The notes beneath the pieces are model-generated. The model made no database searches and had not been told where the DNA came from. It saw nothing but the letters and a program-made list of their open reading frames with translations. Both the position numbers and the translations under genes were made by a program. Of a DNA stretch of 64,000 nucleotides, positions 11,640-51,696 are shown one piece after another. The DNA comes from Dehalococcoidia bacterium (GTDB taxonomy: Bacteria > Chloroflexota > Dehalococcoidia > GIF9 > AB-539-J10), in NCBI GenBank assembly GCA_030612025.1, contig JAUWOR010000006.1:26043-90042 (forward strand), in the 5' to 3' direction. Each line of letters begins with the position of its first letter. The stretch's first letter is position 1.

Positions 11640-12554
11640 ATGGGAATAAGACTTTTTAAAGAGCCTGAGCTGGAAAAACCTGACCTGATTTGCGGCTGGC
11701 CAGGGATTGGGAATATTGGGCTAATTGCTGTTGATACCTTGAAGGGGGAGCTGGTAGCAGAAGAGTTTGGAGAAATAGAACCCTGGGACTTTTTCTACCC
11801 CAAGAAGGTCTCCGTCAGGGACGGTTTGCTCGAAAACTTAGAGTTCCCCACCAACAAATTTTATTATCAGCGGCTGAGAAGGAAAGATTTAATATTTTTC
11901 CTTGGAGAAGAACAGCCGACTGAGGGAGAGAGAGTGTACGCCACGGGAGAAAAGGCTTACCACATGGCCAATCTAGTTTTAGATGTAGCTGAAAAGTTTG
12001 GCTGCCAGAGAGTTTATACTTCAGGTGCCTGTGTTTCACCCATTCACCATACTGTGAAACCAAGAGTTATTTCAGTGGTAAGTTCTGAGAAGTTAGTAGA
12101 GGAGGTAATAAGGTACCAAAATACAATTTTAATAAGCGAAATGGGAGGAAGAGGTGAAGGGGTTATTACCGGATTAAACGGTCTTTTGCTGGCAGTGGCT
12201 AAAAAGAGGGGGTTAGAAAGTATTTGTTTAATGGGGGAGATACCAGATTGGCTTTCTGGTTCTCCCTTCCCCTATCCCAAGGCTTCAAAATCAGTGCTCG
12301 AGGTTTTTGCTGACATTCTCGGAATCAGAATTGATTTTATAGTTCTCGATAAGATGGTTGCCCAGATGGAAGAGGTTATTGAAAAGATCTATGAAGAATT
12401 CCCTTCAGAAATAAGGGAGCGATATGATGAAAGAAAGCTTATTGCCCAAGCTAAGCCAGGAGGGATAACTGAAGAGGATGCCAAATGGATTAAAGAGCAC
12501 ATTGATGAATTTTTTAAGAAAAGGGGGGAACAGGGTGGACAAAGCTCTGTTTGA
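11640..12554 (+). CDS. PAC2 (proteasome assembly chaperone-like) family protein
   Basis: 304 aa. The N-terminal motif LICGWPGIGNIGLIAVDTL is typical of the PAC2/DUF75 family. Confidence 0.65.
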   Translation: MGIRLFKEPELEKPDLICGWPGIGNIGLIAVDTLKGELVAEEFGEIEPWDFFYPKKVSVRDGLLENLEFPTNKFYYQRLRRKDLIFFLGEEQPTEGERVYATGEKAYHMANLVLDVAEKFGCQRVYTSGACVSPIHHTVKPRVISVVSSEKLVEEVIRYQNTILISEMGGRGEGVITGLNGLLLAVAKKRGLESICLMGEIPDWLSGSPFPYPKASKSVLEVFADILGIRIDFIVLDKMVAQMEEVIEKIYEEFPSEIRERYDERKLIAQAKPGGITEEDAKWIKEHIDEFFKKRGEQGGQSSV

Positions 12555-13353
12555 GCTCTATCAGTCTCCCCAGCTTCGCAACCCATCTTTGATTGTCGGT
12601 TGGCAGACCCACGATGTTGGGAAGTTGAGCTCTGAGGTTATCCATTTTTTGAATGAGAAACTGGAAGGTCAGCAAATTGCTGAAATCAAGCCCTCAGGCT
12701 TTTTCCCATTGGGAGGAGCAATATTTAAGGATAACTTGATCCAGGTTCCAGAAAGCAAATTCTGTGCTTGCCAGAAAAACGACCTCTTAATTTTTCAAAG
12801 CGAGGAGCCTAAATATGAATGGTATAAATTTTTGAATGCAGTTTTGGATTTTGCTCAACATTATTGTCATATCAAAGAGCTATATACCATCAGCGCGAGG
12901 CCCTCTCTTAGCGCCCATACTACTCCTCGGAGGATACTTACGGTTTACAATCAGCCAGAATTTCAAAAAACACTCCAAAGCTACGGACTAGAGGATATGA
13001 CCTGGGAAGGACCACCAGCCATAAGTAGTTACCTTCTGTGGGCAGCTGAAAGGAGAAGCATCCCCGGGATAAGCCTTTGGCCCGAGATACCATTTTACCT
13101 CGCTGCCGGAGAAGACCCCACAGCAATAAAGCTTACCCTTTCCTTTCTGGATAGCAGATTTAGCCTGGGGCTGGATTTGGGTGAGCTTGACTCGGATATC
13201 GGAAATCAGAATGAGAAAATAGCTCAGCTAAGAGAGGAAGATGCTGAAATCAATGAATATATCAACCGCCTGGAAAGTGGACTCAGCCTAAACGAAGAAG
13301 AGCAGGTAAGATTAGCCAGAGAAGTGTATGAACTTCTCGAGAAAAGAGGCTGA
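12478..13353 (+). CDS. PAC2 family protein, second tandem paralog. The start is uncertain and may be a downstream GTG or ATG.
   Basis: 291 aa with LIVGWQTHDVGKLSSEVIHFL, similar to the upstream paralog. The two ORFs overlap by 77 nt, so the true start is probably around 12505-12535. Confidence 0.6.
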   Translation: MPNGLKSTLMNFLRKGGNRVDKALFELYQSPQLRNPSLIVGWQTHDVGKLSSEVIHFLNEKLEGQQIAEIKPSGFFPLGGAIFKDNLIQVPESKFCACQKNDLLIFQSEEPKYEWYKFLNAVLDFAQHYCHIKELYTISARPSLSAHTTPRRILTVYNQPEFQKTLQSYGLEDMTWEGPPAISSYLLWAAERRSIPGISLWPEIPFYLAAGEDPTAIKLTLSFLDSRFSLGLDLGELDSDIGNQNEKIAQLREEDAEINEYINRLESGLSLNEEEQVRLAREVYELLEKRG

Positions 13354-14972: not shown

Positions 14973-17900
14973 CTATCTTGAAATCTCGATGGTCTCTTTT
15001 TCAATATTCGCATAGAGGCTGTCTATCTTCTGTTGAACTTCCATTGTCTTTTTCAAAGCAGTTACAACCCGGCAGTAATGTTTTACATCCTCAAGAGATA
15101 CCTCCCGTCCTCTTCTATCCTTAAGCCACTTATCCAAGACCTGGTAACCACCAATTTGGTATTCCCAGACCTCTTTTTCTATTCCCTCAAAGTATTGATC
15201 ATTGTTGATGTAAACCCGCATTTCCTTTTCGCTATATCTTGGCCTCTCAACTTTATTATCACCACTGCCCTCAAATTTGGCAATTGGGTTATTTAGCTCC
15301 GCCGACTTTATCAGATGTAAATCAGCAAGCTTGCTGCCACATTTGCCTATCCTGTTAAACAATTCATGGTCTTTAGTAAAAGGCACTCTGGGGAAATCAA
15401 TTTTCAAAAATTCAGCGTATTTGCTGCGATAGATGTTGGAATAAAGAATGCTATATATGTAATAGAATATTTCCTCTGGAGTTGGTTCTTTGCCATAAGC
15501 CTCAGCTAAAGATTCGACCAGCTTGAGATTAAGGTTTGGCTTTCTTCTCCGAGCTTCCTCTTGGTTGAACATATCTCCTTTGCCTAGATAGAGGTAGAGG
15601 GGAAAGAGATAGCTAATTTCTCTCGTTTTGTTAGAAACAACGCAAGATTCGACAATATTTTCGCAAATAAAAGCATGGTGAAATCCTAGCGTATTTTGTC
15701 GGCAGGTCAATAACCCCAAGTTCTCCCTCATCATGTGGTGCATGACTTCTAAAAGGGGTCTTTCGACAACTATATTTGTATAGTAGATATTTCTCTTATC
15801 AAAAGGACGATATGAAATCTGAGTAAAGTATTTGTCCCAATTCTTATCTTTAGAAAGGGTCTCTCGCGATTTCCTAAACTTAAATGTGCTTGTATCCTTT
15901 AATTTGAAAGCCTGTTTAATAAGTTCATCCGGCATTGATAGATTTCTAAACATCACAATCTGCCTTTTTAAGACATCCCTATCAAAATCAATTACAAACT
16001 TGTCTCGTGCAGTAACAATGCCTACACAATTTATTGGGAAAACATCGGTTATCTTCCAGAATTTTTCGTAAACATTTCTGTAGGTTTCCGCTCTTGGGAC
16101 AAAGAAATAATATGGGCTATCTGGTTTTAGTTGTTGCCACTCGATTGTGTTCACATCATTCCCCAGAAGCCAATCATATTTATCTTTCTGCAAGCCCCAG
16201 AGTTCAGAATGGAAAACTTTCTTCTCTAAGCCCTTTCTTTTAATGAACAGTGAAATGGCAACTCCTTGTTGGATATCAAAAACATTTTCATCCTTAGAGC
16301 CATCAGGACATCTTTCCCTTTTTAGGCTGTTGCCGTGCAAATCCAATAGATAGAGCTCGTTAAAGCTATTCATCAAAGATTGACGCATTCCCCTAAAGGT
16401 CGGGCTATCCAGATAGCTATGATTGGTAATGAATCCCAAAACGCCTTCACCTGCTTGGTCTATCTTCCACTGGGCAAAGCGAATGAATTTAACATAGTCA
16501 TCTTGAAGCCACTGTTTTCTCTCACCTAACCACTGGCCATCTATTACCTTATAGTGTTCTATTAGTTCGCCAATCCAGGTTTTCTGCTTTATTTTCATTT
16601 TTCTTCTTGCCTCTTTTGTTTGAGGAATCAATTTATAACAGCCATTTAATTTATCCTCTTGAATCTGGTAATTAGTTACATATCTGTTCCCCTTCTCAAC
16701 AGTTACTTTCCTCTCGCTTAAATTTGCTGATATTCCCGAATATGGAGGATTCCCCAGAATAACTAGGATGGGCTCTTCCTTCTTTACCTTGCCAGCGAGA
16801 TGTGATTCCTCAGCCAGGGAAGCCATCCCTGGAAGAACAGTTTGCTCCAGTTCTTCCATTTCCAAAGTATTGGTAAGATAGAACTTGAAGCGCTCATCCT
16901 CACGGAGCTTATAGCCCAATTCTTCTAATAGCAGTGCCACCTTCAAATGTCCTAAGGCATAGGGAGCCATCATTAGCTCGAAGGCGTAAAAGTTCTTCAA
17001 GATATGCTCTTTGATAAAGCTCTCCTTTCCTCCCTTCCCATATTTGGCGATAAATTGCTCTAATGCCAATTTGCTTGCCTCAGCAGGGAAGGTCAGAGTG
17101 CCAGCGGCTGGGTCTAAAACAGTGACGGAATTGGAGGCAAATCCATCTGGTCTGTCAAAGCGCTCTTTGAGGATGATATCTAAGGAACGAACGATATAAG
17201 AAACTACTGATTCAGGAGTGTAATAAACGCCCCTTCTTTCCCTTTCCTCAGGATTATACTTAGCTAGAAAAGTCTCGTAGGAATAGTAAACAGGGTCTCT
17301 TCCTTTTGCTTCATGATAAAACTTGTCTAGAATCTCATTGACATCAGCCACTGCCAGAACCTGGGAAATCTCATCCACAATCCATTCCATTTGCTTGGGT
17401 AATTCTTCTAGGGAAATGAAGCTAAAAACATCTCGCAGGATACCAATAGTTCGGGGGATGTAGTCATAAGCTAGCTTGCGGTTAAAGCCATTTTTACAGC
17501 GAGTGCGGGCAGCAAAAAGCCCATAAGTGATAGTCTGAGCATATAAATCGGCAAAACCATCTTGGGTCAGCCCGGCAATGAGATATTTCTGAAATGCTTC
17601 ATAAAATCCAAGAACGGAGCTTCTCTCTTCTTTCAATTCTTCCACAATGACTTGTTCTTTTAAGAAGCTAGTCCTTTTTGCCAGTTCGACGGCTAAAGAC
17701 TCTGCTGTATAGGCCTTAGGGAGTGAGAAGGAGAGGAACTTATTTAGCAGATTGAGAAAACCATCCCTGTTCTCTACAGGAGGTACTGTTTTCAATTGAT
17801 GAATGATAAAGGGTCTAGCCAGCAAGGCTTTATCAACTAGCCTTCCATTGCGATACAGGCGAAATTCAAAGAAGTTGGTTAAGATGAGATTGGGAAATGT

Positions 17901-18188
17901 ATGTCTATAGCGCTTTAGCTGTTCACCGTTCTCAATGTAGTCAAGATTTTCTGTGAGAGGCTCTTTTGCCTCAATATAACCAACAATGTTTTGCCTCCCA
18001 TCCCAAACCCTGAAATCAGGGTTGCCTGCCTCAGTCTTCTTGGGCAAGGTGGTGATATGAATATGCTTTTTGTTAATAGAATCAGCAAGGGCCCTTAGGA
18101 GCTCCTCTAAACTTGAGTAATAGCTTTCCTCCCGAGCATCGCCAGTCTGGGTAACCTCATATAATCTCTTAAGGTATGTCTTTAGCAT
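14973..18188 (-). CDS. single-polypeptide restriction-modification enzyme, MmeI-like type IIL/IIG, with fused N-terminal PD-ExK endonuclease, N6-adenine methyltransferase and target-recognition domain
   Basis: 1071 aa. The N-terminus carries PDFRV...GYIEAKEP, a D-x(n)-EAK nuclease motif. Methyltransferase motif I (VLDPAAGTLTF) and motif IV (LGNPPYSG, NPPY, gamma-class) are present. The large C-terminal region fits a specificity domain. Confidence 0.75.
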   Translation of the reverse strand: MLKTYLKRLYEVTQTGDAREESYYSSLEELLRALADSINKKHIHITTLPKKTEAGNPDFRVWDGRQNIVGYIEAKEPLTENLDYIENGEQLKRYRHTFPNLILTNFFEFRLYRNGRLVDKALLARPFIIHQLKTVPPVENRDGFLNLLNKFLSFSLPKAYTAESLAVELAKRTSFLKEQVIVEELKEERSSVLGFYEAFQKYLIAGLTQDGFADLYAQTITYGLFAARTRCKNGFNRKLAYDYIPRTIGILRDVFSFISLEELPKQMEWIVDEISQVLAVADVNEILDKFYHEAKGRDPVYYSYETFLAKYNPEERERRGVYYTPESVVSYIVRSLDIILKERFDRPDGFASNSVTVLDPAAGTLTFPAEASKLALEQFIAKYGKGGKESFIKEHILKNFYAFELMMAPYALGHLKVALLLEELGYKLREDERFKFYLTNTLEMEELEQTVLPGMASLAEESHLAGKVKKEEPILVILGNPPYSGISANLSERKVTVEKGNRYVTNYQIQEDKLNGCYKLIPQTKEARRKMKIKQKTWIGELIEHYKVIDGQWLGERKQWLQDDYVKFIRFAQWKIDQAGEGVLGFITNHSYLDSPTFRGMRQSLMNSFNELYLLDLHGNSLKRERCPDGSKDENVFDIQQGVAISLFIKRKGLEKKVFHSELWGLQKDKYDWLLGNDVNTIEWQQLKPDSPYYFFVPRAETYRNVYEKFWKITDVFPINCVGIVTARDKFVIDFDRDVLKRQIVMFRNLSMPDELIKQAFKLKDTSTFKFRKSRETLSKDKNWDKYFTQISYRPFDKRNIYYTNIVVERPLLEVMHHMMRENLGLLTCRQNTLGFHHAFICENIVESCVVSNKTREISYLFPLYLYLGKGDMFNQEEARRRKPNLNLKLVESLAEAYGKEPTPEEIFYYIYSILYSNIYRSKYAEFLKIDFPRVPFTKDHELFNRIGKCGSKLADLHLIKSAELNNPIAKFEGSGDNKVERPRYSEKEMRVYINNDQYFEGIEKEVWEYQIGGYQVLDKWLKDRRGREVSLEDVKHYCRVVTALKKTMEVQQKIDSLYANIEKETIEISR

Positions 18189-18262
18189 TTTCTGACACTC
18201 GAACTCCGACCTTATTCATATTATAATACTTAAAGCTGAAAAAAGCATAAGCAGCTTGAGAC

Positions 18263-18469
18263 ATGTCTAGCTCAGGACAGAGAACCGGGATTGCCAATTT
18301 GCCACTTCACTATGGCAAAGTGCCTCCGTGGCTGTTTGGGCGGATGTGCCAGCTTGCTCGGGAGATAGCCATTGTCATTGTTGATGAATTTGGAGCTGAG
18401 GAGATGCTCCGCCGCTTCTTGAACTGTTTTCATCAGCCACCTCCTTTGTTGTCCTCAATAACATTATAG
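18263..18469 (+). pseudogene. divergent 5' fragment of the DUF763 gene
   Basis: MSSSGQRTGIANLPLHYGKVPPWLFGRMCQLAREIAIVIVDEFGAEEMLRR matches the N-terminus of the intact gene at 19426. Nucleotide identity is about 90% over 160 nt, and the sequences diverge after that. Confidence 0.7.
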
Positions 18470-18594
18470 GATGATAGTCAGCGCAATTTGAGTTTTCGCC
18501 AAATGTTCCCGGTGTAAAAGGAGTTCTGCGTAACCAGAATTTCGACGGGGTGAGGCGTAGTCTTTTATACCATGTTATACAAAAAGTGAGAGCA

Positions 18595-18936
18595 TCATTC
18601 TGCTTCTTCCAAAATTCGCAAAACTTTCGGTTTCAGCTCCGGTAAATCCCTTTCCACAACTGCCCAGACCCGCTCCAGATTTACACCAAAATATCCATGA
18701 ATGAGAACATCCCTCATTCCTGCAATCTGCTTCCAAGGGATATTGGGATACTTACTCTTAAAATCCTCGGGTATGTTCTTTACAGCTTCTCCTACAATTT
18801 CCAACCTTCGAATTATAGCATCTTGAGTCCGAATATCCTCCATAAAGTGTGCTTTGCTCATACCTTGAGAGTATTCCTCTATCCTGTCAGCGCTTTCCTT
18901 AATATCTTCGAGGAAAACCCTTATTTCTTTCTTCAT
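18595..18936 (-). CDS. HepT-like (DUF86, HEPN) toxin of a HepT/MNT toxin-antitoxin pair
   Basis: 113 aa. The HEPN motif R-x4-HGY is present in GMRDVLIHGYF. It is coupled to the MNT gene by an ATGA overlap. Confidence 0.8.
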   Translation of the reverse strand: MKKEIRVFLEDIKESADRIEEYSQGMSKAHFMEDIRTQDAIIRRLEIVGEAVKNIPEDFKSKYPNIPWKQIAGMRDVLIHGYFGVNLERVWAVVERDLPELKPKVLRILEEAE

Positions 18937-19220
18937 ACCACCGACACCTGTTCATTGAGAATCCGTTCTTTCAATAAAGGATGAATTGTAGAATATTCAA
19001 CAAGATCAACTTTTCTTCCTAACGCTTCCTCAAGTTCCAACTTCAATGCTACAAGATCGAGCAAACTTTTCTCTTCGGGCAATTCTACAAGGATATCAAT
19101 GTCGCTCCCTTCTTTCATCTCCCCCTTCACAAGGGATCCAAATACTGCAGCTTGCACAACGCCATGACCCGTCAATATAGGAACTATTTTGCTTCTAACT
19201 TCCTCAATGTATTTCTCCAT
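18933..19220 (-). CDS. MNT-type nucleotidyltransferase antitoxin
   Basis: 95 aa. The nucleotidyltransferase motif is present (AAVFGSLVKGE...GSDIDILVEL, i.e. GS...DxD). Confidence 0.8.
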   Translation of the reverse strand: MEKYIEEVRSKIVPILTGHGVVQAAVFGSLVKGEMKEGSDIDILVELPEEKSLLDLVALKLELEEALGRKVDLVEYSTIHPLLKERILNEQVSVV

Positions 19221-19425
19221 AATTGATCACCATTTCCATCTGATGCCGTCATTTCATATAACTTTAGTATATACGAAATTCGCTTTTTATTCAGTAGGTT
19301 ATCAGCATATACATATACTTGGGTAGCTGCTCCCTTTCAAAGCCAGCCGCACCTCTGGCAACTTTTCGTCATGCGGCAAATATCGGTCAAGGTAACGCTG
19401 TTGTATAATATCTGTAGAAAAGGAT

Positions 19426-20514
19426 ATGTCCACCTCAACACAAAGAACCGGGATTGCTAATTTGCCTTTGCACTATGGCAAGGTGCCTCCGTGGCTTTTT
19501 GGGCGGATGTCTCAGCTTGCTCGGGAGATTGCCATTGTCATTATTGATGAATTTGGAGCTGAGGAGATGCTCCGCCGCCTTTCTGACCCTTTCTGGTTTC
19601 AAGCTTTTGGCTGTGTCCTGGGCTACGACTGGCATTCCAGCGGCGTTACTACCACTGTTTGCGGGGCTCTGAAAGAAGGGATGCGAGGCTTAGAAAAAGA
19701 ACTTGGCCTGTTCGTTGCCGGCGGCAAGGGCAGGACTTCACGAAAAACCCCAGCGGAGATAGAAAGCTTTGGGCATCTGCTAAAAGTAAATCCATCGCCT
19801 CTAATCTATGCCAGTCGGATGTCAGCCAAGGTAGATAACTCAGCCCTTCAAGACGGCTATCAGCTCTATCACCATACTTTCTTCTTTACCAGAGACGGCT
19901 CCTGGGCAGTAATTCAGCAGGGCATGAATGAGATTAACCGCTATGCGCGGCGTTATCACTGGCTAGGAGAAAAAGTCGTTGATTTTGTTTGTGAGCCTGA
20001 GGCAGCTATTTGCTCCCAAGCTAGAGGCGAAGCACTAAACTTGGTAGCATCAGAGAGCACACAAGCGCGAAACGTCATCACCGATATTGCTGCTGAGGAA
20101 AAGCCGGAGAATATCGTAACCCAATTGAAGAAGCTAAAAACCTTGACTCTGCCCCGGCGATCTTACATCAGCCTCGAAGACATTCATCCCGACCGACTGA
20201 GCAAGCTCTTCACCATCGCTTATGAGCATCAACCAGAAAACTTTGAGTCACTGCTGGGGCTTGAAGGTATAGGACCAAAGACGCTTCGCGCTTTGAGTCT
20301 TATCTCAGAATTGGTTTACGATACACCGGTTAGCCTGCATGACCCGGCAAGCTACAGTTTTGCCCATGGTGGCAAGGATGGTCATCCCTATCCTGTGGAT
20401 AGGAAGACTTATGATGCTAGCATCGAATTTCTGGCTCAGGCGGTAGATAAAGCCAAGATTGGCGATAAAGAGAAGCTTGATGCCTTCAGACGCCTAAAAG
20501 TTTGGACTGTATAA
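19426..20514 (+). CDS. DUF763-family protein, conserved hypothetical and archaeal-like
   Basis: 362 aa. Partial, divergent copies of its 5' end (18263-18469) and 3' end (22407-22510) flank two inserted cassettes. Confidence 0.7.
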   Translation: MSTSTQRTGIANLPLHYGKVPPWLFGRMSQLAREIAIVIIDEFGAEEMLRRLSDPFWFQAFGCVLGYDWHSSGVTTTVCGALKEGMRGLEKELGLFVAGGKGRTSRKTPAEIESFGHLLKVNPSPLIYASRMSAKVDNSALQDGYQLYHHTFFFTRDGSWAVIQQGMNEINRYARRYHWLGEKVVDFVCEPEAAICSQARGEALNLVASESTQARNVITDIAAEEKPENIVTQLKKLKTLTLPRRSYISLEDIHPDRLSKLFTIAYEHQPENFESLLGLEGIGPKTLRALSLISELVYDTPVSLHDPASYSFAHGGKDGHPYPVDRKTYDASIEFLAQAVDKAKIGDKEKLDAFRRLKVWTV

Positions 20515-20540: not shown

Positions 20541-20963
20541 TTAAAAGTTTAATGATTGACGAATAGTTGCTAAATCTCTTTGGAAAAAGCCTTTTACGTC
20601 ACTATTACTAAAATATTCCTGAACTGGCTTTTCAAGAAATTCTCTTTCTGCGGGGAAGTGAAGATACCTAGCAATTCTGCTTTGCTCATAAAGTTTCCTA
20701 AACGATTGCCACACCTTAAATGAGTAGTTTTCTAAAATCATCTCGGTTCTGTAGTCATGATAGCTTCCTTTGTAATTACGAGGTTTGCTTATTTCGGTAT
20801 GCACGATTTTGGGATTCTGAAAGAAGGCAGCTTCAACATAATGGATAGCAGCGTAAAAGGTTGCAGTTATAATCCAATCCTTATATTCCAAGCTGGCTAA
20901 TAGTTGCCGGGCTAGACTTTCATTATGTCGTGCTTGTCGCAAATGAGCTTGTAGAGATGCCAT
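20541..20963 (-). CDS. hypothetical protein, gene 3 of the uncharacterised cassette
   Basis: 140 aa with no recognisable motifs. It lies last in a co-directional three-gene string. Confidence 0.5.
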   Translation of the reverse strand: MASLQAHLRQARHNESLARQLLASLEYKDWIITATFYAAIHYVEAAFFQNPKIVHTEISKPRNYKGSYHDYRTEMILENYSFKVWQSFRKLYEQSRIARYLHFPAEREFLEKPVQEYFSNSDVKGFFQRDLATIRQSLNF

Positions 20964-21567
20964 CTAGACTTCTTGACCAAATCAGTTTCACATCTGGATT
21001 GAATATCTGAGCTAAAGACTCAAACTCAGTGAGCCTGGGGATATATTCAAAGGAAAGAGGAACATCCTTAAATTGCAATCGAACATTTCTCTCACTGATG
21101 AGAAGCCGATTCATTAATTCGTCGTCATACTTTTCATTCGTTGTTAGTATAAGGAACCTTTTTCTCTGCAGGTATTCATCGGAATAAATCGAAAACACCT
21201 GCTCTATTCCTTCAAAAATGCCTATAACCTTCCGTTCTATGCGAAATTCACTACTCTCCTCCTCAGCTTTCGTTGAGAACTCAACCCATCTAATAAGTGT
21301 ACCAGAGTTCAGAGAAAAGACCTCTTCCCACATAGCCTCCAAGGTGGTTACAAGCTGGCGATCTAATAAATCGATAGCTTTAGAACACTGCTTAACTTTC
21401 TCAACCCCGAGATATTGTGTAACCTCTTTGCCAGCAGTAACTTCTTTAAAGGCATTCAGCAAAATCTCAGAAAACATCTTAAAGGTTGTATTCTCCACAT
21501 CTTCTCGCCTTAGCCTCCATGGTGTATAAGGCTGGGTAACAGTGGATATAGAAGCAAGAGCACACAT
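20923..21567 (-). CDS. hypothetical protein, gene 2 of the cassette. The probable start is MCALAS at 21567.
   Basis: An ATG at 21565-21567 is preceded by GAGGAGGA, which lies within the last codons (FTEED*) of the upstream gene. The start was reassigned from the ORF-track position of 21633. Confidence 0.5.
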   Translation of the reverse strand: MCALASISTVTQPYTPWRLRREDVENTTFKMFSEILLNAFKEVTAGKEVTQYLGVEKVKQCSKAIDLLDRQLVTTLEAMWEEVFSLNSGTLIRWVEFSTKAEEESSEFRIERKVIGIFEGIEQVFSIYSDEYLQRKRFLILTTNEKYDDELMNRLLISERNVRLQFKDVPLSFEYIPRLTEFESLAQIFNPDVKLIWSRSLDGISTSSFATSTT

Positions 21568-21569
21568 AC

Positions 21570-22277
21570 TTAATCCTCCTCTGTAAACAAAGACTTTAAA
21601 TCGCTTTCCACAAAAGTGAAAACTTGGGAACAAAAAGCTGGAATCTGTTCTGCACTAAAATCATATTTCATCTCTGAGACTGTATTTATATCTGTCTCAA
21701 TGAGCAAAGCATTAGCTTCTTCTAAGGTTTCTTTACCCTCAGGGCTAAGGCATCTAAATCTGTGCCATCTGTTTACCTTAAATTCTCCTAGAGCAAACTT
21801 GTGCAAAAAGTTCAGATTAAGTTCGCGCGGATCGACAATCGTTCCTGACTTCAAGAACTTTTTCATTAAGAAATCCACGGGGGACTCTTCTGGAAACACA
21901 GCTGAGTTTACAACAATCCCCATGCGCTCAACTTTCACTCTAAGTTCTGTTTTTACAGCCCTAGCAATGTTGGCAAGCTGAGTCAAAAAATCATCTTGCA
22001 CCTCTTCAAGCTTTTTATTTTCACCTTTCTTCTGTCTTAAAAAAAACTCAAGTCTTTTAGGGCTTATGTGGCAATGAAACATCTTATTCTTATCCCCAAG
22101 GATAATGCGCGGAATTTCAACGGGAGCATCATCAGGTATCGGTAAAATAGTCTGTTCACCACTAAACAAGTTTTTTGTAGCTTTGTTTAGATTTTGAGCA
22201 ACTTCTATTCTGTCAGACAGAGCTATATCGCTGAAAAGAACTACTAAAATTCTTCGGATAAAAATTTCCATTGCCAC
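21570..22277 (-). CDS. hypothetical protein, gene 1 of the cassette
   Basis: 235 aa with no recognisable motifs. Its stop codon abuts the RBS and start of gene 2. Confidence 0.5.
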   Translation of the reverse strand: MAMEIFIRRILVVLFSDIALSDRIEVAQNLNKATKNLFSGEQTILPIPDDAPVEIPRIILGDKNKMFHCHISPKRLEFFLRQKKGENKKLEEVQDDFLTQLANIARAVKTELRVKVERMGIVVNSAVFPEESPVDFLMKKFLKSGTIVDPRELNLNFLHKFALGEFKVNRWHRFRCLSPEGKETLEEANALLIETDINTVSEMKYDFSAEQIPAFCSQVFTFVESDLKSLFTEED

Positions 22278-22406
22278 CTCTCTTATATTAGATTCAAACC
22301 CCGGCGAAAAGTATCAAACGCCTCATCAATATACGCCAAAAAACACTTCTTGACAATAGGGGGGACTTTGCACAATCCCGGTAGAACTTTCTTAAACAAT
22401 CTGGCC

Positions 22407-22510
22407 TTATACGATGCTAGCATTGAATTTCTGGCTCTGGCAGTGGACAAAGCCAAAATTGGCGATAAAGAGAAGCTTGATGCCTTCAGAAGATTAAAGG
22501 CTTGGCGGTA
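22407..22510 (+). pseudogene. divergent 3' fragment of the DUF763 gene
   Basis: About 88% nucleotide identity to 20405-20514. It encodes ...DASIEFLALAVDKAKIGDKEKLDAFRRLKAWR*. Confidence 0.65.
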
Positions 22511-22534
22511 AAGGAGGTTTTAGGGTGAGTTTTT

Positions 22535-22588
22535 CACCCTCACCTTAATCCTCTCCCGTCAAGGGAGAGGAAATTTGGCTCGCAATGA
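22535..22588 (+). repeat. REP-like hairpin element, copy A (caccctcaccttaatcctctccc-N-caagggagaggaaat)
   Basis: Further copies lie at 56274-56316 and 58304-58357, all in the same orientation. A degenerate relative is at 24464-24495. Confidence 0.7.
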
Positions 22589-22638
22589 CATAGTGAAGTT
22601 ATTGTTACAAGGCTCTATAATATAGGGTAAGCAGTAAA

Positions 22639-23979
22639 ATGACCCATTTTGATATCGCATCTTATGTGTCCCACATCGAGGCTAATAGGTCAGTCAAGGA
22701 TGCCCTGATGCAAAAGTTAAAGACTCGCCGGCCTCCATACCATATTTCAGTAACTGACCTGACTAACCTGAAGCAGGCTTACTTTAAGAGAAAATACCCG
22801 GAAATCGTTCCACCTCTGGAAAAACAACAGCTTCTGTGGGCTGGCACCGGGTTTCACAAGATCTTTGGTTCGGCTGTTTCCAGCGAAGAATATCTGGAGC
22901 AGTTTGTCGAAGCTGAGGGCATCGTAGGCAAAATTGATATCTATGAAAATATACCCATAGAGGTGAAAACAACCTCAACCCTGGTAAGCACGGGAGACTT
23001 GGCTAAATATAGGCCGACTTATGTGGAACAACTGGGCATATACTGTGCTATGGTCAACTCCCTCCAGGGGAAAATCATTATTTACCAGCGCCACGATTCT
23101 ACAGAATCACCCCAAGCTCCGCTTATTGCCTACCAGGTTACTTTTCCCGATCTGGAAGCAATCCGAGAGGAAATGCGGCAAAGGCGAGATCTCTTGGTAC
23201 AAGCACTCATCTCAAATGACCCCAGTAATCTGCCTATCTGTGCTTGGTTTAATAGGGGATGTGATTATTCAGAAGTATGTGACTGCAGGACTACTTCGGT
23301 GCCGCTATCATACACGATTGCTGAACTAGCAGGGCAAATCCAAATTGACGAGCCCACTTGCCAACAACTCCTTGATAAGCTTGCCAAGCCACAGCCATCT
23401 CGACTATTTCGAACCAACGACCTCGTCTTCCCCCGTAAGGCATACTTTAAGCGTGCCAAGCCGCAAGAAATCGCCATTGACCAAGGGTTGCCGCAAGAAA
23501 AAGAAGAGCATCTTCGTTCCATGGATGAACTAGGCTTTCTCGATGCGCTTCGTGATGCGTTACGCTACGGCGCTCCAGGCGAAGTGGAAAGGATTCCCAT
23601 ACAACATAGACTATTGGCTGACCTGGTCCAAGTCTGTCAGAACTTGCCCACCATCTTGCGCGACCCAAAGTTCTATTCCCTGGTGGAAAGGGAACGCTTG
23701 CCCTGGACATTCCCTCATTATTTCCTCCGCCTGGGATTCGAGTGCGCCCTAACAGACCATCCCCAGGGCAGGCTACTGCTTTATTACGCTAACGTTCCTA
23801 GAGAAGATGCTAAACTAATGGTCTATGATGCGACCTTTAGAAATTTGCATGCCCTCAAGACGGAGGCATTACGCCGCGTTGAGCTTTTGCAAAAAGCAAC
23901 GTCTCCACTTCAGCTTCCAAAATGTCCCTCATGGATGTGTCCTAACTGTAGCTATAAGTTTGAATGTGGTGAAGCATGA
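22639..23979 (+). CDS. Cas4/RecB-like PD-(D/E)XK nuclease domain protein with two cysteine clusters (putative Fe-S centres)
   Basis: 446 aa. The nuclease motifs are GKIDIYENIPIEVKTT (D...ExK) and YVEQLGIY (QxxxY). The first Cys cluster is CAWFNRGCDYSEVCDC. The C-terminal Cys cluster is CPSWMCPNCSYKFEC (C-x4-C-x2-C-x5-C). Confidence 0.55.
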   Translation: MTHFDIASYVSHIEANRSVKDALMQKLKTRRPPYHISVTDLTNLKQAYFKRKYPEIVPPLEKQQLLWAGTGFHKIFGSAVSSEEYLEQFVEAEGIVGKIDIYENIPIEVKTTSTLVSTGDLAKYRPTYVEQLGIYCAMVNSLQGKIIIYQRHDSTESPQAPLIAYQVTFPDLEAIREEMRQRRDLLVQALISNDPSNLPICAWFNRGCDYSEVCDCRTTSVPLSYTIAELAGQIQIDEPTCQQLLDKLAKPQPSRLFRTNDLVFPRKAYFKRAKPQEIAIDQGLPQEKEEHLRSMDELGFLDALRDALRYGAPGEVERIPIQHRLLADLVQVCQNLPTILRDPKFYSLVERERLPWTFPHYFLRLGFECALTDHPQGRLLLYYANVPREDAKLMVYDATFRNLHALKTEALRRVELLQKATSPLQLPKCPSWMCPNCSYKFECGEA

Positions 23980-24467
23980 ACTGGCTGGATATAGTTATCA
24001 TAATAGTTACTCTCTTACTCGGCATGCTGGGATTATGGAGAGGAGCTATCAAGGCTGTATTTGGTATCGTCGGGTTAATAGGAGGTATAGCTCTAGCAGG
24101 GCATTACTACCTGCCACTTGCCAGCATACTCTCCTCCGGTGAAGCTATTTGGTCGAGGATAGCTGCCTACGCTATTATCCTGGTGGCCACTTTGATTGTA
24201 GCTAGCGTAATCGGCTGGTTTGTAGCTCGCTTGGTTCACATCGTGATGCTCGGCTGGGTAGATAGGCTTATTGGTTTCATCCTTGGAGCCGCCATAGGTA
24301 GCATGCTATGCGCCGCTGTCCTTGCCATTGTAAGCAAGTATTTATCAGTCATGGGGGGAGTTATCTCTCAGTCTGTAATGGCAAAACTCTTGATGGAGCA
24401 ATTTCCTTTGTTATTAGCGCTCCTCCCCGAGGAATTTGACTTCATTGCTGACTTCTTTTCACTCTAA
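23976..24467 (+). CDS. cvpA: CvpA-family membrane protein
   Basis: 163 aa with four transmembrane segments and CvpA-like topology. It overlaps the nuclease gene stop by 4 nt (ATGA). Confidence 0.65.
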   Translation: MNWLDIVIIIVTLLLGMLGLWRGAIKAVFGIVGLIGGIALAGHYYLPLASILSSGEAIWSRIAAYAIILVATLIVASVIGWFVARLVHIVMLGWVDRLIGFILGAAIGSMLCAAVLAIVSKYLSVMGGVISQSVMAKLLMEQFPLLLALLPEEFDFIADFFSL

Positions 24468-33172: not shown

Positions 33173-33262
33173 GATAAAGGATAAGAAAATCAAAAATCAA
33201 ACATCAAAAGTCAAAATCACAGATTTATTTTTGCATTTTTATCTTTGACTTTCCGCCTCGTC
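33173..33262 (-). promoter_or_regulatory. hairpin plus tandem TGATTTT repeat element between rpoB and rpoC
   Basis: The minus-strand sequence reads aaagtcaaag...ctttgacttt (a 9-bp stem) and then tgatgtttgatttttgatttt. A related element lies at 56941-57051. Confidence 0.45.
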
Positions 33263-40842: not shown

Positions 40843-41126
40843 TAAATATACTATTGGATAAGGCAGGCGGATTAGAGCCTGAACTGCAAGACTATTGCTC
40901 AAGTTTGCTGAGTATCTGAAAGGTCTTTCTACAAATGAAGAAACATAGTCTGTTTTTGCTGACTGAGCTTTATCTGCCTGCTTCATTCATACCTATTTAC
41001 ATACAATGTTAAATTTTTGTTGATATTATGTCAAAATCGTAGAACATTAACACCCATTGAATTCCATGTCTTGACAAAGGCTCAGTGTTAATAATATGCT
41101 TCACTAACTACTTTGATGTTGATTAA

Positions 41127-41603
41127 GTGTCTGATATGGTAGAAGACAAGAACGAAGAATTATATGACCTATGGACATTGTTGCTTCGTGCTACCCGCTT
41201 GGCTGCAAAAGCGAGAGAGAAAGAACTTAGACCATACGGTATCTCACGTGCAGAGGCAGGAGTGCTACGCGTTATATTTCAAAAACAAGGCCGGTTAACG
41301 CCGTCGGATATTGCAAGACAAACGAGAAGAGAGATCCACACTGTTAATGCGCTACTGCATAGGATGCAAGGAAGGGAAATGCTGCAAATCGTAAGGGGTG
41401 AGAACAGAAAGGATATTGTCGAAATGCATTTAACGGATAAGGGGTATCAAGCCTATGAAAACAGCCTTAGACTAGACTCCGTTTCCGAAATACTGTCTAT
41501 CCTATCAAAGGATGAACGTACATCTCTTGCATCAATTATGCGTAAGGTTGGAAATTCTGCTCTAGAGGTTATCAAGGAATGCGATCATCCGCGCTTTTCA
41601 TAG
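41127..41603 (+). CDS. MarR-family transcriptional regulator
   Basis: 158 aa. The winged helix-turn-helix region is ISRAEAGVLRVIFQKQGRLTPSDIARQT...VNALLHRMQ. Confidence 0.75.
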   Translation: MSDMVEDKNEELYDLWTLLLRATRLAAKAREKELRPYGISRAEAGVLRVIFQKQGRLTPSDIARQTRREIHTVNALLHRMQGREMLQIVRGENRKDIVEMHLTDKGYQAYENSLRLDSVSEILSILSKDERTSLASIMRKVGNSALEVIKECDHPRFS

Positions 41604-41770
41604 TTTTCCCCTGGAAAACAAACTAGGCACGCACGTTGAAGGCAGACAATGGCGCCCACAATTGGGGGGTGGATTGCTCTGTTAATTTATCAAAGAAACT
41701 TTCAATATATCCATTCTCCTGGGGACTGTCAGGATTAATAAGCGGAGTCTGGCTGCCTAGAGCTTCCTAG

Positions 41771-42049
41771 TCACTGGCAGACCGCCCTAGCAACAAACTC
41801 AGAGCCGTTGCCACTGTGAATAAACTTCGGCACCCCACGGGTCAGCAGCAAACACTCCGGCCTCCTCACTACCGCCGAAGCTGGTATTGCGGGTGCAATC
41901 CTGGTGGCCAGGCACTGCCGGGCGGACGCATCAATTACAGCCAGAGTCCCGAGCTTATGACCTCGCTCGGTCCTGTCCTCCATGAAGTCGTAGCTCCAGA
42001 CATGATGGGATGTATTCTGTTTTTTTTCAAATTTCTGCCAGTGTTGCAT
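41771..42049 (-). pseudogene. transposase (rve integrase core) internal fragment
   Basis: The 92-aa ORF contains HVWSYDFMEDRTERGHKLGTLAVIDASARQ...FIHSGNGSEFVA. This fits the D..D / HSDNGSEF core of IS3/IS481-like integrases. Confidence 0.55.
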
Positions 42050-44608: not shown

Positions 44609-45904
44609 TTGGGAGATATGGCTTACAAAAAGGAAAAAATGCAGCTAAATGGAGAGCAAAGGAAGATACTGGATGGAAAGGAAGGAAAAATCCTACAGGA
44701 GGCGATGGAGTCTCTCATTAAGTATGGCACTGCTATGGGTGCTAGGGAATTCATCAGAATCTCCAGTGCTCATACCTTGTTCACGTTAAGGAGCAAGGTA
44801 GCTAGGTGCTTCCTTCCGCGTGGTGTTCTGTTAACCAAAGAGGATATTGATAAGTTTAGCAAAGAGATAATTGGTACCCAAGTAAGAGTCAAGACCACAG
44901 TTAACCCTGGAGCAATAGACCGTGAGAAGTGGCAGCAGATGGGTGCTGAGGAGGCCACTTATAATTCAGTGATGCAAACGGTAGAGATTGGTAAGAGGTG
45001 TGGGTTTATGATGACTTATACCTGCATCCCTTACCTTACAGATAATATTCCTTTAATAGGTCAACACGTTGCTTGGTCTGAGTCTAGTGCTTATCTTTAC
45101 ATTAACAGCTTCTTAGGAGCTCGGTCAAACCGTGATTCCTGCGAGATATCCTTATATTCATCCTTGCTAGGCATTGCTCCGAACTTTGGCCTGCACCTTG
45201 ATGAGAATAGGAGGGGTACTGACTTAATTAATGTGCAATGTGAGTTAAAAGGTCCCATCGATTGGGGTGCACTAGGTTACTTTACAGGAGATAGAGTGGG
45301 TATAGGTATTCCGGTATTCAAAAATTTGAGGAGACCAACTACAGAGGAAGCAGTACAATTAAGTGCATCCATGAGTTCCTCTGGTGCTGTACCTATGTTA
45401 CATATTGTGGGTGTGACACCTGAGGCGCCAACTATTGAGACAGCTTTCAGAGGGAACACGCCAAGGCAAACATATATCTTCGATGAATCTGCCAAAGGAG
45501 AGGTTTACCAGCTTCTCAATTACAAACCTGAAGGGAAGGTGGATATCGTTTTCCTTGGCTGTCCACATGCAACTCTCTACGAGATAAAAGAGATAGCTCG
45601 AATGCTTGAAGGTAAGCATGTGGCCAATGATATTAGACTTTGGGTCATGACATCGTCTTCCATTAGAGCTTCGGCAGAACAGCTGGGGTATGCTGAGATA
45701 ATTGAGGATAGTGGGGGGGAACTATTTGCTGATGGATGCTTTCTCTGCTACTACGTAAATGCTCCTAATAAAAAGCCCAAGATGGATCGTATAGCAACCA
45801 ATTCAGCCAAGCAGGCTTTCGGTGCAAGAAGGTCATTTAACAGCAATGTATTTTTTGGAGACACGGAGCGTTGTATCCAGATTGCTATTGATGGAGGTGC
45901 TTAA
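44609..45904 (+). CDS. AcnX-type (aconitase X, DUF521) dehydratase large subunit, pair 1
   Basis: 431 aa and paralogous to 50436-51695. Shared blocks include YGTAMGA, W[SA]ES..YLYINS.LGA.SNR and ATNSAK.AF.ARRSF.SN.FFG. A DUF126-type small subunit follows immediately. Confidence 0.65.
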   Translation: MGDMAYKKEKMQLNGEQRKILDGKEGKILQEAMESLIKYGTAMGAREFIRISSAHTLFTLRSKVARCFLPRGVLLTKEDIDKFSKEIIGTQVRVKTTVNPGAIDREKWQQMGAEEATYNSVMQTVEIGKRCGFMMTYTCIPYLTDNIPLIGQHVAWSESSAYLYINSFLGARSNRDSCEISLYSSLLGIAPNFGLHLDENRRGTDLINVQCELKGPIDWGALGYFTGDRVGIGIPVFKNLRRPTTEEAVQLSASMSSSGAVPMLHIVGVTPEAPTIETAFRGNTPRQTYIFDESAKGEVYQLLNYKPEGKVDIVFLGCPHATLYEIKEIARMLEGKHVANDIRLWVMTSSSIRASAEQLGYAEIIEDSGGELFADGCFLCYYVNAPNKKPKMDRIATNSAKQAFGARRSFNSNVFFGDTERCIQIAIDGGA

Positions 45905-46320
45905 TGGCAGCAGCATCAAAAATATTCAGGGCGAAAAAAATCGTTCCAGGTAAGGTTTCAGGGCCAGCTCTGGTTACTAGGGGGTGTCTCTCCTTTCAGG
46001 GCTTTATTGATCCAAAGCGAGGGGTATTTTCTGCACCAGTGACTGAGTTGCAAGGAGCTTCATTTGTTGGAGCAGTATTAATTTTCACTTCGGGGAAAGG
46101 TCCTTCCGTTGGGCCGAGTGTACTTGACCTCGCCTGTCGTTTTGGAAATGCCCCAGCAGCAATCATTAACTTGGAGATAGACCCCATGATAGTTGCAGGC
46201 TGTGCTTTGCAAAACATCCCGCTGGTGCAGGTAAAGGATTCAGGCATTTTCGACCAAGTAAAGAACGGAGATATAGTAACGGTGGATGCAGACAGAGGTG
46301 AGGTGACAATTTCTAAATAG
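45904..46320 (+). CDS. AcnX swivel-domain small subunit (DUF126), pair 1
   Basis: 138 aa with AKKIVPGKVSGPALVT...SFQGFIDPKRGVF. It is start/stop coupled to the large subunit. Confidence 0.65.
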   Translation: MAAASKIFRAKKIVPGKVSGPALVTRGCLSFQGFIDPKRGVFSAPVTELQGASFVGAVLIFTSGKGPSVGPSVLDLACRFGNAPAAIINLEIDPMIVAGCALQNIPLVQVKDSGIFDQVKNGDIVTVDADRGEVTISK

Positions 46321-50439: not shown

Positions 50440-51695
50440 GGTTAACTGAAGTACAGCAAAATATAATTAATGGTGATAAAGGGAGACTTCTTAGAGAAGC
50501 ACTTATTAACCTGGTTAAATATGGCACTGCCATGGGTGCTGAGGAATTTATCCCCATCACCAGCGCCCATATTGCGTTTTCAGCAATGGACGTTGTGGCT
50601 TTGTGCTTCTCTCCACGTGGTAGGGAGCTAACAAAAGCTGAGATTGATAGGATTACCGAAGAGATGAGAAATATTAAAGTTAATGTTAGAACCACCGTTA
50701 ATTCAGGAATAATTGATCGTAGAAGGTGGCAACAAATGGGTGCTGACGAGTCAATTTATAATTCTGTAATGCAGGCAGTTGAAGTTGCAAGAGAGTGTGG
50801 GATAATGCCTACCTTCAGTATCACACCCCATCTAACTGATAATATCCCACTTATGGGAGAGCATTGTGCATGGGCTGAGTCTGGAACGCATTTATATATT
50901 AACAGTATTTTGGGAGCACAATCTAACAGAGAGTCGTATGAGTCAGCTTTTTACTCATGCCTACTAGGTATTACTCCAAACTTTGGCATGCACCTTGATG
51001 AGAATAGAAAAGGTACAGACTTGGTTGATATCCAGTGCGAGCTAGAATATGGTAGTGATTGGGGTGCATTAGGATATTTCACTGGTGATAGTATTGGTAT
51101 AGGTATACCTGTATTTAAAAATCTAAAAAGGCCAGTTGTTGAGCAGGTAAATCAACTTTGTTTTGCAACAAACTCTCCTGGTGCTATTCCAATGCTGCTT
51201 ATTCCCGGTGTGTCTCCTGAGGCTCCAACTCTTGAGGCGGCCTTTAGAGGAAACAAACCCAGGAATACATACTTTTTTGATGATAAAGCCAAACAAAGAA
51301 TTTACAATTCTCTCAACTATAATTCTAAAGGAGAAGTGGACTTAATTTCTTTTAGATGTCCTACTTTATATGAGTTAAGTAAAATAGCTAAAATGATTGA
51401 GGGAAAGAAAGTTCACAAAAATACTAGATTATGTGTAATGACTTCTGATTCTATTAGACACTCTGCGGAGCAAATAGGCTATGCTCAGATAATTGAGGAC
51501 AGCGGTGCAGAGCTATTTGCTGATGGTACACTACTTATTTTCTACATAAATGCACCTGCAAAGAAACCTAAGATGAATAGGATAGCAACAAATTCAGCCA
51601 AGCTTGCTTTTGCCGCAAGACGGTCATTTCACAGCAACATATTTTTTGGAAGCACAGAGCGCTGCATCGAAATAGCCATTAAGGGAGGTGTGTAA
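50436..51695 (+). CDS. AcnX-type (DUF521) dehydratase large subunit, pair 2
   Basis: 419 aa and paralogous to 44609-45904. Confidence 0.65.
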   Translation: MRLTEVQQNIINGDKGRLLREALINLVKYGTAMGAEEFIPITSAHIAFSAMDVVALCFSPRGRELTKAEIDRITEEMRNIKVNVRTTVNSGIIDRRRWQQMGADESIYNSVMQAVEVARECGIMPTFSITPHLTDNIPLMGEHCAWAESGTHLYINSILGAQSNRESYESAFYSCLLGITPNFGMHLDENRKGTDLVDIQCELEYGSDWGALGYFTGDSIGIGIPVFKNLKRPVVEQVNQLCFATNSPGAIPMLLIPGVSPEAPTLEAAFRGNKPRNTYFFDDKAKQRIYNSLNYNSKGEVDLISFRCPTLYELSKIAKMIEGKKVHKNTRLCVMTSDSIRHSAEQIGYAQIIEDSGAELFADGTLLIFYINAPAKKPKMNRIATNSAKLAFAARRSFHSNIFFGSTERCIEIAIKGGV

Positions 51696-51696
51696 T

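Follow-up and report, generated by a model that had tools for sequence, protein, structure and literature searches.

A stand-alone Cas4-like nuclease of Dehalococcoidia and archaea that joins an intact and a putatively inactivated PD-(D/E)XK domain in one chain

Solo-Cas4 genes, which lie outside CRISPR loci, are common in archaea and in some small-genome bacteria, where their function is an open question, and the phylogenomics of Cas4 further describes phage forms, UvrD fusions, and helicase-linked pfam12705 proteins while describing no tandem form (PMC5704561). A Cas4-family nuclease associated with pAgo, ACE1 (PDB 9IAB), is also known (PMC12094033), and the nucleocapsid protein TP1 of TTV1, which is derived from Cas4, provides a precedent for an inactivated copy (PMC4625639). 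Here we analyzed a stand-alone nuclease gene in a stretch of 64,000 nucleotides from a Dehalococcoidia bacterium (GenBank assembly GCA_030612025.1, contig JAUWOR010000006.1, positions 26,043 to 90,042 of the forward strand), which we refer to as the window. The gene occupies positions 22639-23979 on the plus strand, stop codon included, and encodes a complete protein of 446 amino acids with an ATG start, as supported by the list of open reading frames (ORFs), the sequence, and hundreds of full-length homologs. The protein is covered wholly by two nuclease-fold domains and has no helicase domain; the N-terminal domain carries the full set of catalytic motifs, and the C-terminal domain appears to be a degenerate copy of it. 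We found no description of a tandem or duplicated Cas4-like nuclease in open-access papers and bioRxiv, although one may exist elsewhere.

The N-terminal Cas4-like nuclease domain spans approximately residues 35-216 (22741-23286, plus strand, as are all features of the gene given below), including the first of two cysteine clusters. The RecB-type catalytic motifs (Asp, Glu-x-Lys, Gln-x3-Tyr) are complete in this domain and missing from the C-terminal one. Motifs II and III, D100 and E108-x-K110 (22936-22968), lie within GKIDIYENIPIEVK at residue 97, and the Q131-x3-Y135 motif of RecB/Cas4-type nucleases (23029-23043) lies within YVEQLGIY at residue 128. Conservation was assessed in an alignment of 88 full-length relatives with 21-58% identity to the query. 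All 88 carry D100, E108, and K110 as well as Q131 and Y135, and C208, C214, and C216 are equally invariant, while conservation is at least 95% for H73, E87, C201, C429, C437, and C443. As judged from this alignment, every predicted catalytic residue, namely H73, E87, D100, E108-x-K110, and Q131-x3-Y135, is kept in the N-terminal copy. In a profile search, residues 94-215 of the query matched PDDEXK_1 (PF12705), a nuclease family, above its gathering threshold (31.1 bits versus a cutoff of 22), and only 33 of the 88 family members reached E<=0.01 with this model, indicating that the family lies at the edge of PDDEXK_1. The first-pass annotation of this DNA, made from the sequence without database searches, had reported the ORF, the nuclease motifs, and both cysteine clusters at these places, and had named a profile search and the conservation of the motif residues as the points on which its nuclease assignment should stand or fall; the sequence, the profile match, and the invariant residues uphold it on each.

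The protein consists of two mutually homologous halves. Residues 1-225 aligned to residues 226-446 in BLASTP with an E-value of 1e-17 and 26% identity over 222 amino acids, and hhalign, run between the profiles of the N-terminal and C-terminal halves of the family alignment, returned a probability of 99.9% and an E-value of 1e-31 over 199 columns. The half-to-half alignment pairs the N-terminal helices (VTDL..K.AY with NDLVFPRKAY), the beta-meander, the QLGIYC helix with RLGFEC, and the cysteine tails LPICAWFNRGCDYSEVC and LPKCPSWMCPNCSYKFEC; C136 and C369, both approximately 75% conserved, occupy equivalent positions of the two halves and were considered as candidate ligands. These alignments point to an ancient internal duplication, which gave rise to two homologous Cas4-like PD-(D/E)XK domains. 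The C-terminal domain comprises residues 256-446 (23404-23976) and is joined to the first by a linker of residues 217-255 (23287-23403) that is poorly conserved, with a mean pairwise identity of 16%.

Each catalytic position of the N-terminal domain has a counterpart in the C-terminal domain. D100 corresponds to Q331 in the query (L/P/A/T/V in the family), E108 to I339 (L/I/V), Q131 to R364 (mostly E), and Y135 to E368 (mostly R), and K110 alone keeps a basic counterpart, R341 (R or K in the family). The catalytic Asp, Glu, Gln, and Tyr have been lost from the C-terminal copy in the whole family, and this copy is presumably catalytically dead. It retains the fold, the 'DL..PR.AY' helix at its N-terminus, a basic residue where the active copy has Lys, and a cysteine cluster of its own. 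The mean pairwise identity is 27% for the C-terminal core and 35% for the N-terminal core family-wide, and 77% versus 81% for the two domains in the close clade, showing that the putatively dead copy is still under constraint and nearly as conserved as the active one.

The AlphaFold2 model of the nuclease, computed from an input alignment of 45 sequences, has a mean predicted local distance difference test score (pLDDT) of 79 and a predicted template modeling score (pTM) of 0.61, with an identical order of secondary-structure elements in both halves. The structural neighbors of the model include Dna2, a Cas4-Cas1 fusion, phage exonucleases, MGME1, Exo5, and type I-C Cas4, as well as RecE, lambda exonuclease, the Cas4 protein Pcal_0546, AdnA, and ACE1. 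Foldseek searches against the PDB were consistent with these neighbors, and no PDB entry found by Foldseek spanned both domains. In its fold, the predicted structure is Cas4-like.

Comparison with Cas4 itself (COG1468) revealed both clear likeness and clear departures. The family profile matched solved Cas4 proteins by sequence (SSO0001, 4IC1, E=8.4e-5; Pcal_0546, 4R5Q, E=1.1e-3), and the query shares with these the D...ExK and QxxxY motifs, the N-terminal 'VTDL..PR' helix, and a C-terminal cysteine motif. Unlike Cas4, which is a single domain, the query family has two fused copies of which the second appears dead, and its cluster 1 takes all four ligands from the C-terminal side (C-x6-C-x5-C-x-C). 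When the N-terminal helices are compared (VTDLVRCPRR in 4IC1, VTDLLN-PR in the query), the Cys of the 4IC1 helix, the first iron-sulfur (Fe-S) ligand of Cas4, is missing, and the query has no Cys before C136. The Cas4-type Fe-S module, formed by an N-terminal helix Cys and a C-terminal CX2CX5C, is accordingly not found as such. The dedicated Cas4 models were also not satisfied by the query: residues 413-443, the region of cluster 2, align to the C-terminal end of the curated NCBIfam cas4 model TIGR00372 with 15.8 bits versus a cutoff of 65, the Pfam model PF01930 was matched neither by the query at E<=1 nor by any of the 88 members at E<=0.01, and the Cas4 models of PADLOC gave weak matches with E-values of 2.5e-5 to 2.6e-3. 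The earlier label of a Cas4/RecB-like nuclease therefore stands as far as the PF12705 match and the RecB motifs go, whereas membership in the Cas4 family is not supported by model thresholds. With respect to genomic setting, neither cas1/cas2 nor a CRISPR array accompanies the gene in the window. Pfam scans found no cas genes among the window ORFs of at least 100 amino acids, none occur in related loci with listed gene content, and the 64-kb window holds no CRISPR-type tandem or spaced direct repeats, in line with what the first-pass annotation had reported. In being stand-alone and apparently vertically inherited, the query family resembles the solo-Cas4 genes outside CRISPR loci (PMC5704561).

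Other relatives of the fold differ from the query family in their partners. The Fe-S nuclease domains of AddB/AdnA, which belong to helicase-nuclease repair complexes, and ACE1 (PMC12094033) resemble it in fold, whereas the query has no helicase domain, no conserved helicase or pAgo partner, a tandem arrangement with a dead copy, and a differently placed fourth Cys ligand. An AddB/AdnA/RecB-type enzyme would be expected to be fused to, or in obligate complex with, an SF1 helicase or helicase-like domain; the query has no such fusion, no conserved helicase neighbor was found, and the sole DEAD-box helicase neighbor occurs at two closely related archaeal loci described below. A precedent for the dead copy is found in the C-terminal domain of RecC in RecBCD, an inactivated PD-(D/E)XK copy; copies of this kind are known to pair with an active nuclease or to be reused for binding DNA. 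Unlike RecC and TP1, the dead copy of the query shares one chain with its active paralog, retains a metal cluster of its own, and belongs to neither a helicase machine nor a virion. Viral matches by fold were single-domain Cas4-like nucleases that covered one half only (TMq ~0.3), the best being C287 of Sulfolobus virus Ragged Hills, rudivirus and lipothrixvirus nucleases, and a 'Cas4-like exonuclease' of an uncultured archaeal virus. In contrast to the tandem family, these viral and phage proteins have approximately 200-300 amino acids and one domain, and sequence searches of IMG/VR viral contigs, GenBank phages, and PLSDB plasmids returned no relatives of the tandem family.

The cysteine clusters were examined across the family. 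Cluster 1, C201-x6-C208-x5-C214-x-C216 (23239-23286), has four Cys residues that are 99-100% conserved and lie in one segment C-terminal to the nuclease core, a segment covered by the very end of the PF12705 profile (to position 247 of 247). Cluster 2 of the query, C429-x4-C434-x2-C437-x5-C443, is followed by G-E445 (23923-23973). Each copy ends in a conserved cysteine cluster, which in alignments matches the Cys motif at the C-terminal end of the PDDEXK_1 and Cas4 profiles. The first-pass annotation had taken cluster 2 to resemble the Fe-S module of Cas4 and AddB; it is indeed a conserved cluster, but it belongs to the duplicated dead domain and is not a second module of one nuclease. The C-x4-C-x2-C-x5-C pattern is real in the query; C429, C437, and C443 are 98% conserved, C434 is found in only 15% of the 88 relatives, and the CX2CX5C spacing is lineage-specific.

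The fourth ligand of cluster 2 varies, and C434 is one of several alternatives. Among the 79 representatives in which cluster 2 could be anchored, 50 have only a terminal C-x-C, 10 have only the internal Cys (nine of them with an exact CxxC, giving the Cas4-like CX2CX5C as in the query), and none has both (0/50/10/19, Fisher p=1.4e-5). The remaining 19 include nine with Asp/Glu at +2, four with a later Cys, and several with other four-Cys spacings. In most members cluster 2 is thus C-x7-C-x5-C-x-C, and CX2CX5C is particular to the lineage of the query (9-10 of 79), which has both C434 and E445. This compensatory pattern of the fourth ligand indicates a real four-ligand site. Given the motif homology to Cas4 and AddB and the Fe-S-binding structural neighbors, [4Fe-4S] is the most likely cofactor of both clusters.

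An exhaustive search of 1.84 billion cluster representatives retrieved 404 relatives with E<=1e-3, of which 86 reached E<=1e-30, and the full-length architecture of approximately 450 amino acids is retained down to approximately 25% identity. Database names for the relatives are 'hypothetical protein' or 'PD-(D/E)XK nuclease family protein'. A scan of species-representative genomes with a profile from a closer alignment of 13 sequences yielded 157 relatives, and the best 80 of these 157 loci (designated by L numbers below) come mostly from metagenome-assembled genomes of Dehalococcoidia, with further members in Gemmatimonadales (approximately 45% identity) and one each in Thermoplasmata and a Methanobacteriota archaeon (approximately 44% identity). 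The family is conserved in Dehalococcoidia and in many archaea, and it has no CRISPR link.

In Dehalococcoidia the position of the gene is stable. Relatives with approximately 76% identity share the gene order DUF763, nuclease, cvpA, trx, tatD ... ruvB, rpoC. Across the clade, 34 of the 44 loci have a same-strand DUF763 gene upstream, at a distance of at most 237 nt in 30, and cvpA lies downstream of the nuclease gene in 54 of 58. Inserts are frequent on both sides: 35 of the 54 nuclease-cvpA intervals contain 0.46-5 kb of additional DNA, and 4 of the 34 DUF763-nuclease intervals contain 0.8-3.6 kb. The retained synteny together with these inserts identifies the nuclease gene as a fixed point flanked by two insertion hot-spots. 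Within its Dehalococcoidia clade it is a core gene with vertical inheritance; it marks an insertion hot-spot and is no cargo of the neighboring island. This answers the question, raised by the first-pass annotation, of whether the gene is core or varies with the island. In the window, the region upstream is variable (a type IIG restriction-modification enzyme, a HepT/MNT pair, DUF763, and three ORFs without a database match), and the region downstream holds the housekeeping genes cvpA, thioredoxin, TatD, DnaJ-like, PadR, RuvB, RpoC, RpoB, and MutS. The gene cvpA (23976-24467; Pfam Colicin_V PF02674, E=5.6e-26) shares an ATGA stop/start overlap with the nuclease gene at 23976-23979. The overlap, from which translational coupling had been proposed, is real, but stop and start overlap at only approximately 4 of 54 loci; the coupling is a local feature of the query lineage and not a general one.

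In more distant members, both DUF763 and cvpA are missing from the neighborhood. When the neighbors of 15 distant loci were clustered, no neighbor family common to several lineages emerged, with ORF calling being unreliable in the high-GC Gemmatimonadales loci. At the closely related archaeal pair L073 and L075, the nuclease gene is flanked by a divergent DEAD-box helicase, a proteasome beta subunit, and FttA, and this helicase recurs at no other locus. The archaeal origin of divergent representatives was judged from neighboring genes: two high-GC loci (L085 and L088) show archaeal housekeeping synteny with an archaeal-type phosphopantothenate synthetase, PRPP synthetase, eIF2-gamma, and ribosomal S6e, and L086 adjoins TFB and DUFs whose names refer to haloarchaea. 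Another setting surrounds two of the most divergent members (approximately 23-28% identity), one (L087, 7384-8509) next to a phage-type integrase and an Hjc resolvase and the other (L089, 3899-4699) next to a Phage_P4_cII-like gene and many small ORFs, which suggests that an archaeal branch of the family is tied to mobile elements.

On balance, we consider it probable that the gene encodes a chromosomal single-chain 'pseudo-dimer', in which two Cas4-like PD-(D/E)XK domains, the N-terminal one intact and the C-terminal one dead and each with a cysteine cluster, serve housekeeping DNA-end processing. The N-terminal domain alone would cut DNA in a Mg/Mn-dependent manner, acting on single-stranded DNA or on 5' tails or flaps like Cas4, Dna2, Exo5, MGME1, and AdnA. 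The dead domain would stand in for the second subunit of a Cas4-type dimer, and it may hold the DNA (the other strand or downstream single-stranded DNA) or stabilize the enzyme. Both clusters would bind [4Fe-4S] with the fourth ligand coming from the same C-terminal segment, as opposed to the N-terminal helix 'iron staple' in Cas4. The cellular role would be the processing of DNA ends in repair or recombination, not adaptive immunity. Several points weigh against this picture. The packing between the domains is predicted with moderate confidence at the pTM given above, the proposed substrate and cellular role are taken from structural neighbors, and the metal is assigned by homology only. No conserved partner gene such as a helicase or recombinase that would point to a pathway was found among the neighbors of the distant loci. 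In the window, the nuclease gene abuts defense-type genes, namely the type IIG restriction-modification enzyme and HepT/MNT, as well as the three-ORF cassette, and the mobile context of L087 and L089 makes a defense or mobile-element role possible for part of the family.

The chemistry of the protein could be read differently in two respects. The cysteine clusters might be structural zinc sites, which would make the protein an ordinary metal-stabilized nuclease without a redox-active cofactor. Zinc can be bound at four-Cys sites, and this reading would fit the absence of the N-terminal Cys of Cas4 from the family and the origin of all four ligands of each cluster in one short C-terminal segment, unlike the 'staple' of Cas4 and AddB. 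We nevertheless regard it as quite doubtful, because in alignments the clusters fall on the cysteine motif that ends the PDDEXK_1 and Cas4 profiles, Cas4 being an Fe-S-binding enzyme (PMC5704561), and because several of the closest structural neighbors, AdnA, ACE1 (PMC12094033), and Cas4 (PMC5704561), are Fe-S nucleases. The spacing also differs from the CxxC...CxxC pattern of zinc ribbons, and the fourth Cys is replaced by Asp/Glu in nine of the 79 members. Asp or Glu as a fourth ligand is known for [4Fe-4S] sites and is unusual for structural Zn(Cys)4, and Dna2 and Exo5 are likewise Fe-S nucleases. That the enzyme processes RNA instead of DNA is very improbable, since every strong structural match is a DNase.

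The other two alternatives concern what the gene works with. It could encode an accessory nuclease for defense or against mobile elements, similar to ACE1 with pAgo or to Cas4-like proteins linked to restriction-modification enzymes or helicases, with the island genes or unlinked systems as its partners; stand-alone Cas4-family nucleases are known to assist defense (PMC12094033, PMC5704561). The neighborhood in the window, where the type IIG enzyme (PADLOC E=6e-268), the HepT/MNT pair, and the three-ORF cassette stand beside the gene, the insertion hot-spots on both flanks, and the integrase, Hjc, and P4-cII-like genes adjoining divergent members all speak for such a role. We find it unlikely all the same, because the synteny is stable amid changing neighbors and the family is absent from the phage, plasmid, and viral collections: the nuclease gene is kept while its neighbors change, and the island genes are missing in most relatives. 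In addition, the neighbors of the archaeal and Gemmatimonadales members are unrelated and mostly housekeeping, and against the system models of PADLOC-DB the nuclease gave weak Cas4 matches only, with neighbors that are not conserved across lineages. The remaining alternative is a two-gene module in Dehalococcoidia with the upstream DUF763, which may bind DNA through a helix-hairpin-helix. The position of DUF763 directly upstream on the same strand in 34 of the 44 clade loci and a weak helix-hairpin-helix match in DUF763 are in its favor; yet this match is under the Pfam cutoff, the AlphaFold2 model of DUF763 (pLDDT 52, with usable homologs all at least 81% identical) is too poor to interpret, and neither PDB sequence relatives nor functional literature were found for DUF763. 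Inserts separate the two genes in several genomes, including that of the window, and the nuclease gene has a conserved upstream block of its own, which is kept in the window and in L069 despite the inserted cassette. Because the adjacency is absent outside the clade, being missing in all more distant members (L063, L064, L067, and L073-L090), such a module seems a rather remote prospect, and we retain housekeeping DNA-end processing by a pseudo-dimeric nuclease as the preferred explanation.

The DNA directly upstream of the nuclease gene is an ancestral DUF763-nuclease intergenic spacer of 127 nt (22512-22638, plus strand), which is orthologous to the corresponding spacer in L005, L007, L043, and L068 and contains two hairpins, a conserved block, and a TATAAT sequence. 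The hairpins, at 22522-22540 and 22550-22570 (RNA fold z=-5.2 for 22522-22570), have no second copy in the window and no Rfam family. The REP-like element (repetitive extragenic palindrome) that had been noted upstream of the gene was rejected as a dispersed repeat: the hairpins are real, but they are single-copy in the window, lie in a spacer conserved in relatives, and have no Rfam match. The block at 22579-22625 (CTCGCAATGACATAGTGAAGTTATTGTTACAAGGCTCTATAATATAGG) before the nuclease ATG is almost unchanged across five related genomes; it persists even in L069, one of the five, though the DNA further upstream differs there and the same three-ORF cassette is inserted. A -10-like TATAAT box lies at 22616-22621, 17 nt before the ATG, and neither a canonical sigma-70 promoter nor a -35 element was called upstream of the gene on the plus strand. 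The block may be a promoter or operator, possibly with a very short leader.

Further upstream, the window contains one full DUF763 gene (19426-20514), a 5' fragment (18260-18469), and a 3' fragment (22350-22511). The repeats within the fragments are close to the full gene, with 90% DNA identity between 18260-18415 and 19423-19578 and 88% between 22410-22505 and 20410-20505. On one side the fragments enclose the HepT/MNT pair, on the other the three-ORF cassette, and the 3' fragment, together with the spacer, is orthologous to the DUF763 end in relatives. The arrangement looks as if cassettes with partial copies of DUF763 had been inserted through homology (Campbell-type insertion). The three-ORF cassette (20541-22277, minus strand) consists of overlapping ORFs of 140, 236, and 235 amino acids, none of which matched Pfam, NCBIfam, or PADLOC. 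The same cassette, with 70-80% amino acid identity, occupies the same DUF763-nuclease site in another Dehalococcoidia genome (L069, 4100-5821), and the cassette is mobile. Between RtcA and the nuclease gene, the variable zone at 14973-19220 encodes the type IIG restriction-methyltransferase, of 1071 amino acids, and the toxin-antitoxin-like HepT/MNT pair; in relatives the same zone holds other cargo, such as an RnlA-like toxin, RNase HII, and an ABC transporter in L002.

Several features elsewhere in the window were also recorded. The heptamer AAAATCA occurs in 4.4 tandem copies at two intergenic sites that are far apart, at 33186-33216 (rpoC/rpoB) and 56951-56981 (RNase HII/MnmA-like). The cumulative GC skew reaches its minimum (-2.88) near 41 kb (approximately 41000-42000), where gene orientation turns from mostly minus to mostly plus; the two together form the pattern expected at a replication origin, and no dnaA was seen among the scanned ORFs of the window. 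Two pairs of AcnX and AcnX-swivel genes (44609-46320 and 50436-52107) lie on either side of a TRAP-type transporter gene, and two PAC2-family genes stand side by side at 11640-13353, farther upstream of the nuclease gene.

The broad class to which this protein belongs, that of stand-alone Cas4-like Fe-S nucleases, is already recognized, and the new details are the fused arrangement of an active and a dead copy, the presence of two clusters, and the compensatory swapping of ligands. More speculatively, the family might be an ancient, archaea-widespread line of single-chain pseudo-dimeric Cas4-like enzymes with two Fe-S clusters that was transferred to Dehalococcoidia and Gemmatimonadales, acting as a helicase-independent, strand-discriminating processor of DNA ends analogous to a miniature RecB/RecC or AddA/AddB. 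Of the two strands of a frayed end, one would be cut in the active domain and the other threaded or clamped by the dead one. We hold this scenario to be improbable on present evidence; if true, such an end processor could provide resection in lineages without the classical machines. The fused pair of an active and a putatively dead copy is in any case a natural dissection of the features that are needed for catalysis and those that are needed for something else: the dead copy has kept the fold, the metal cluster, and one basic residue, and its fourth ligand has moved several times and was compensated each time. If both sites are [4Fe-4S], the protein would offer a small, tractable two-cluster nuclease for asking what Fe-S clusters do in DNA enzymes.

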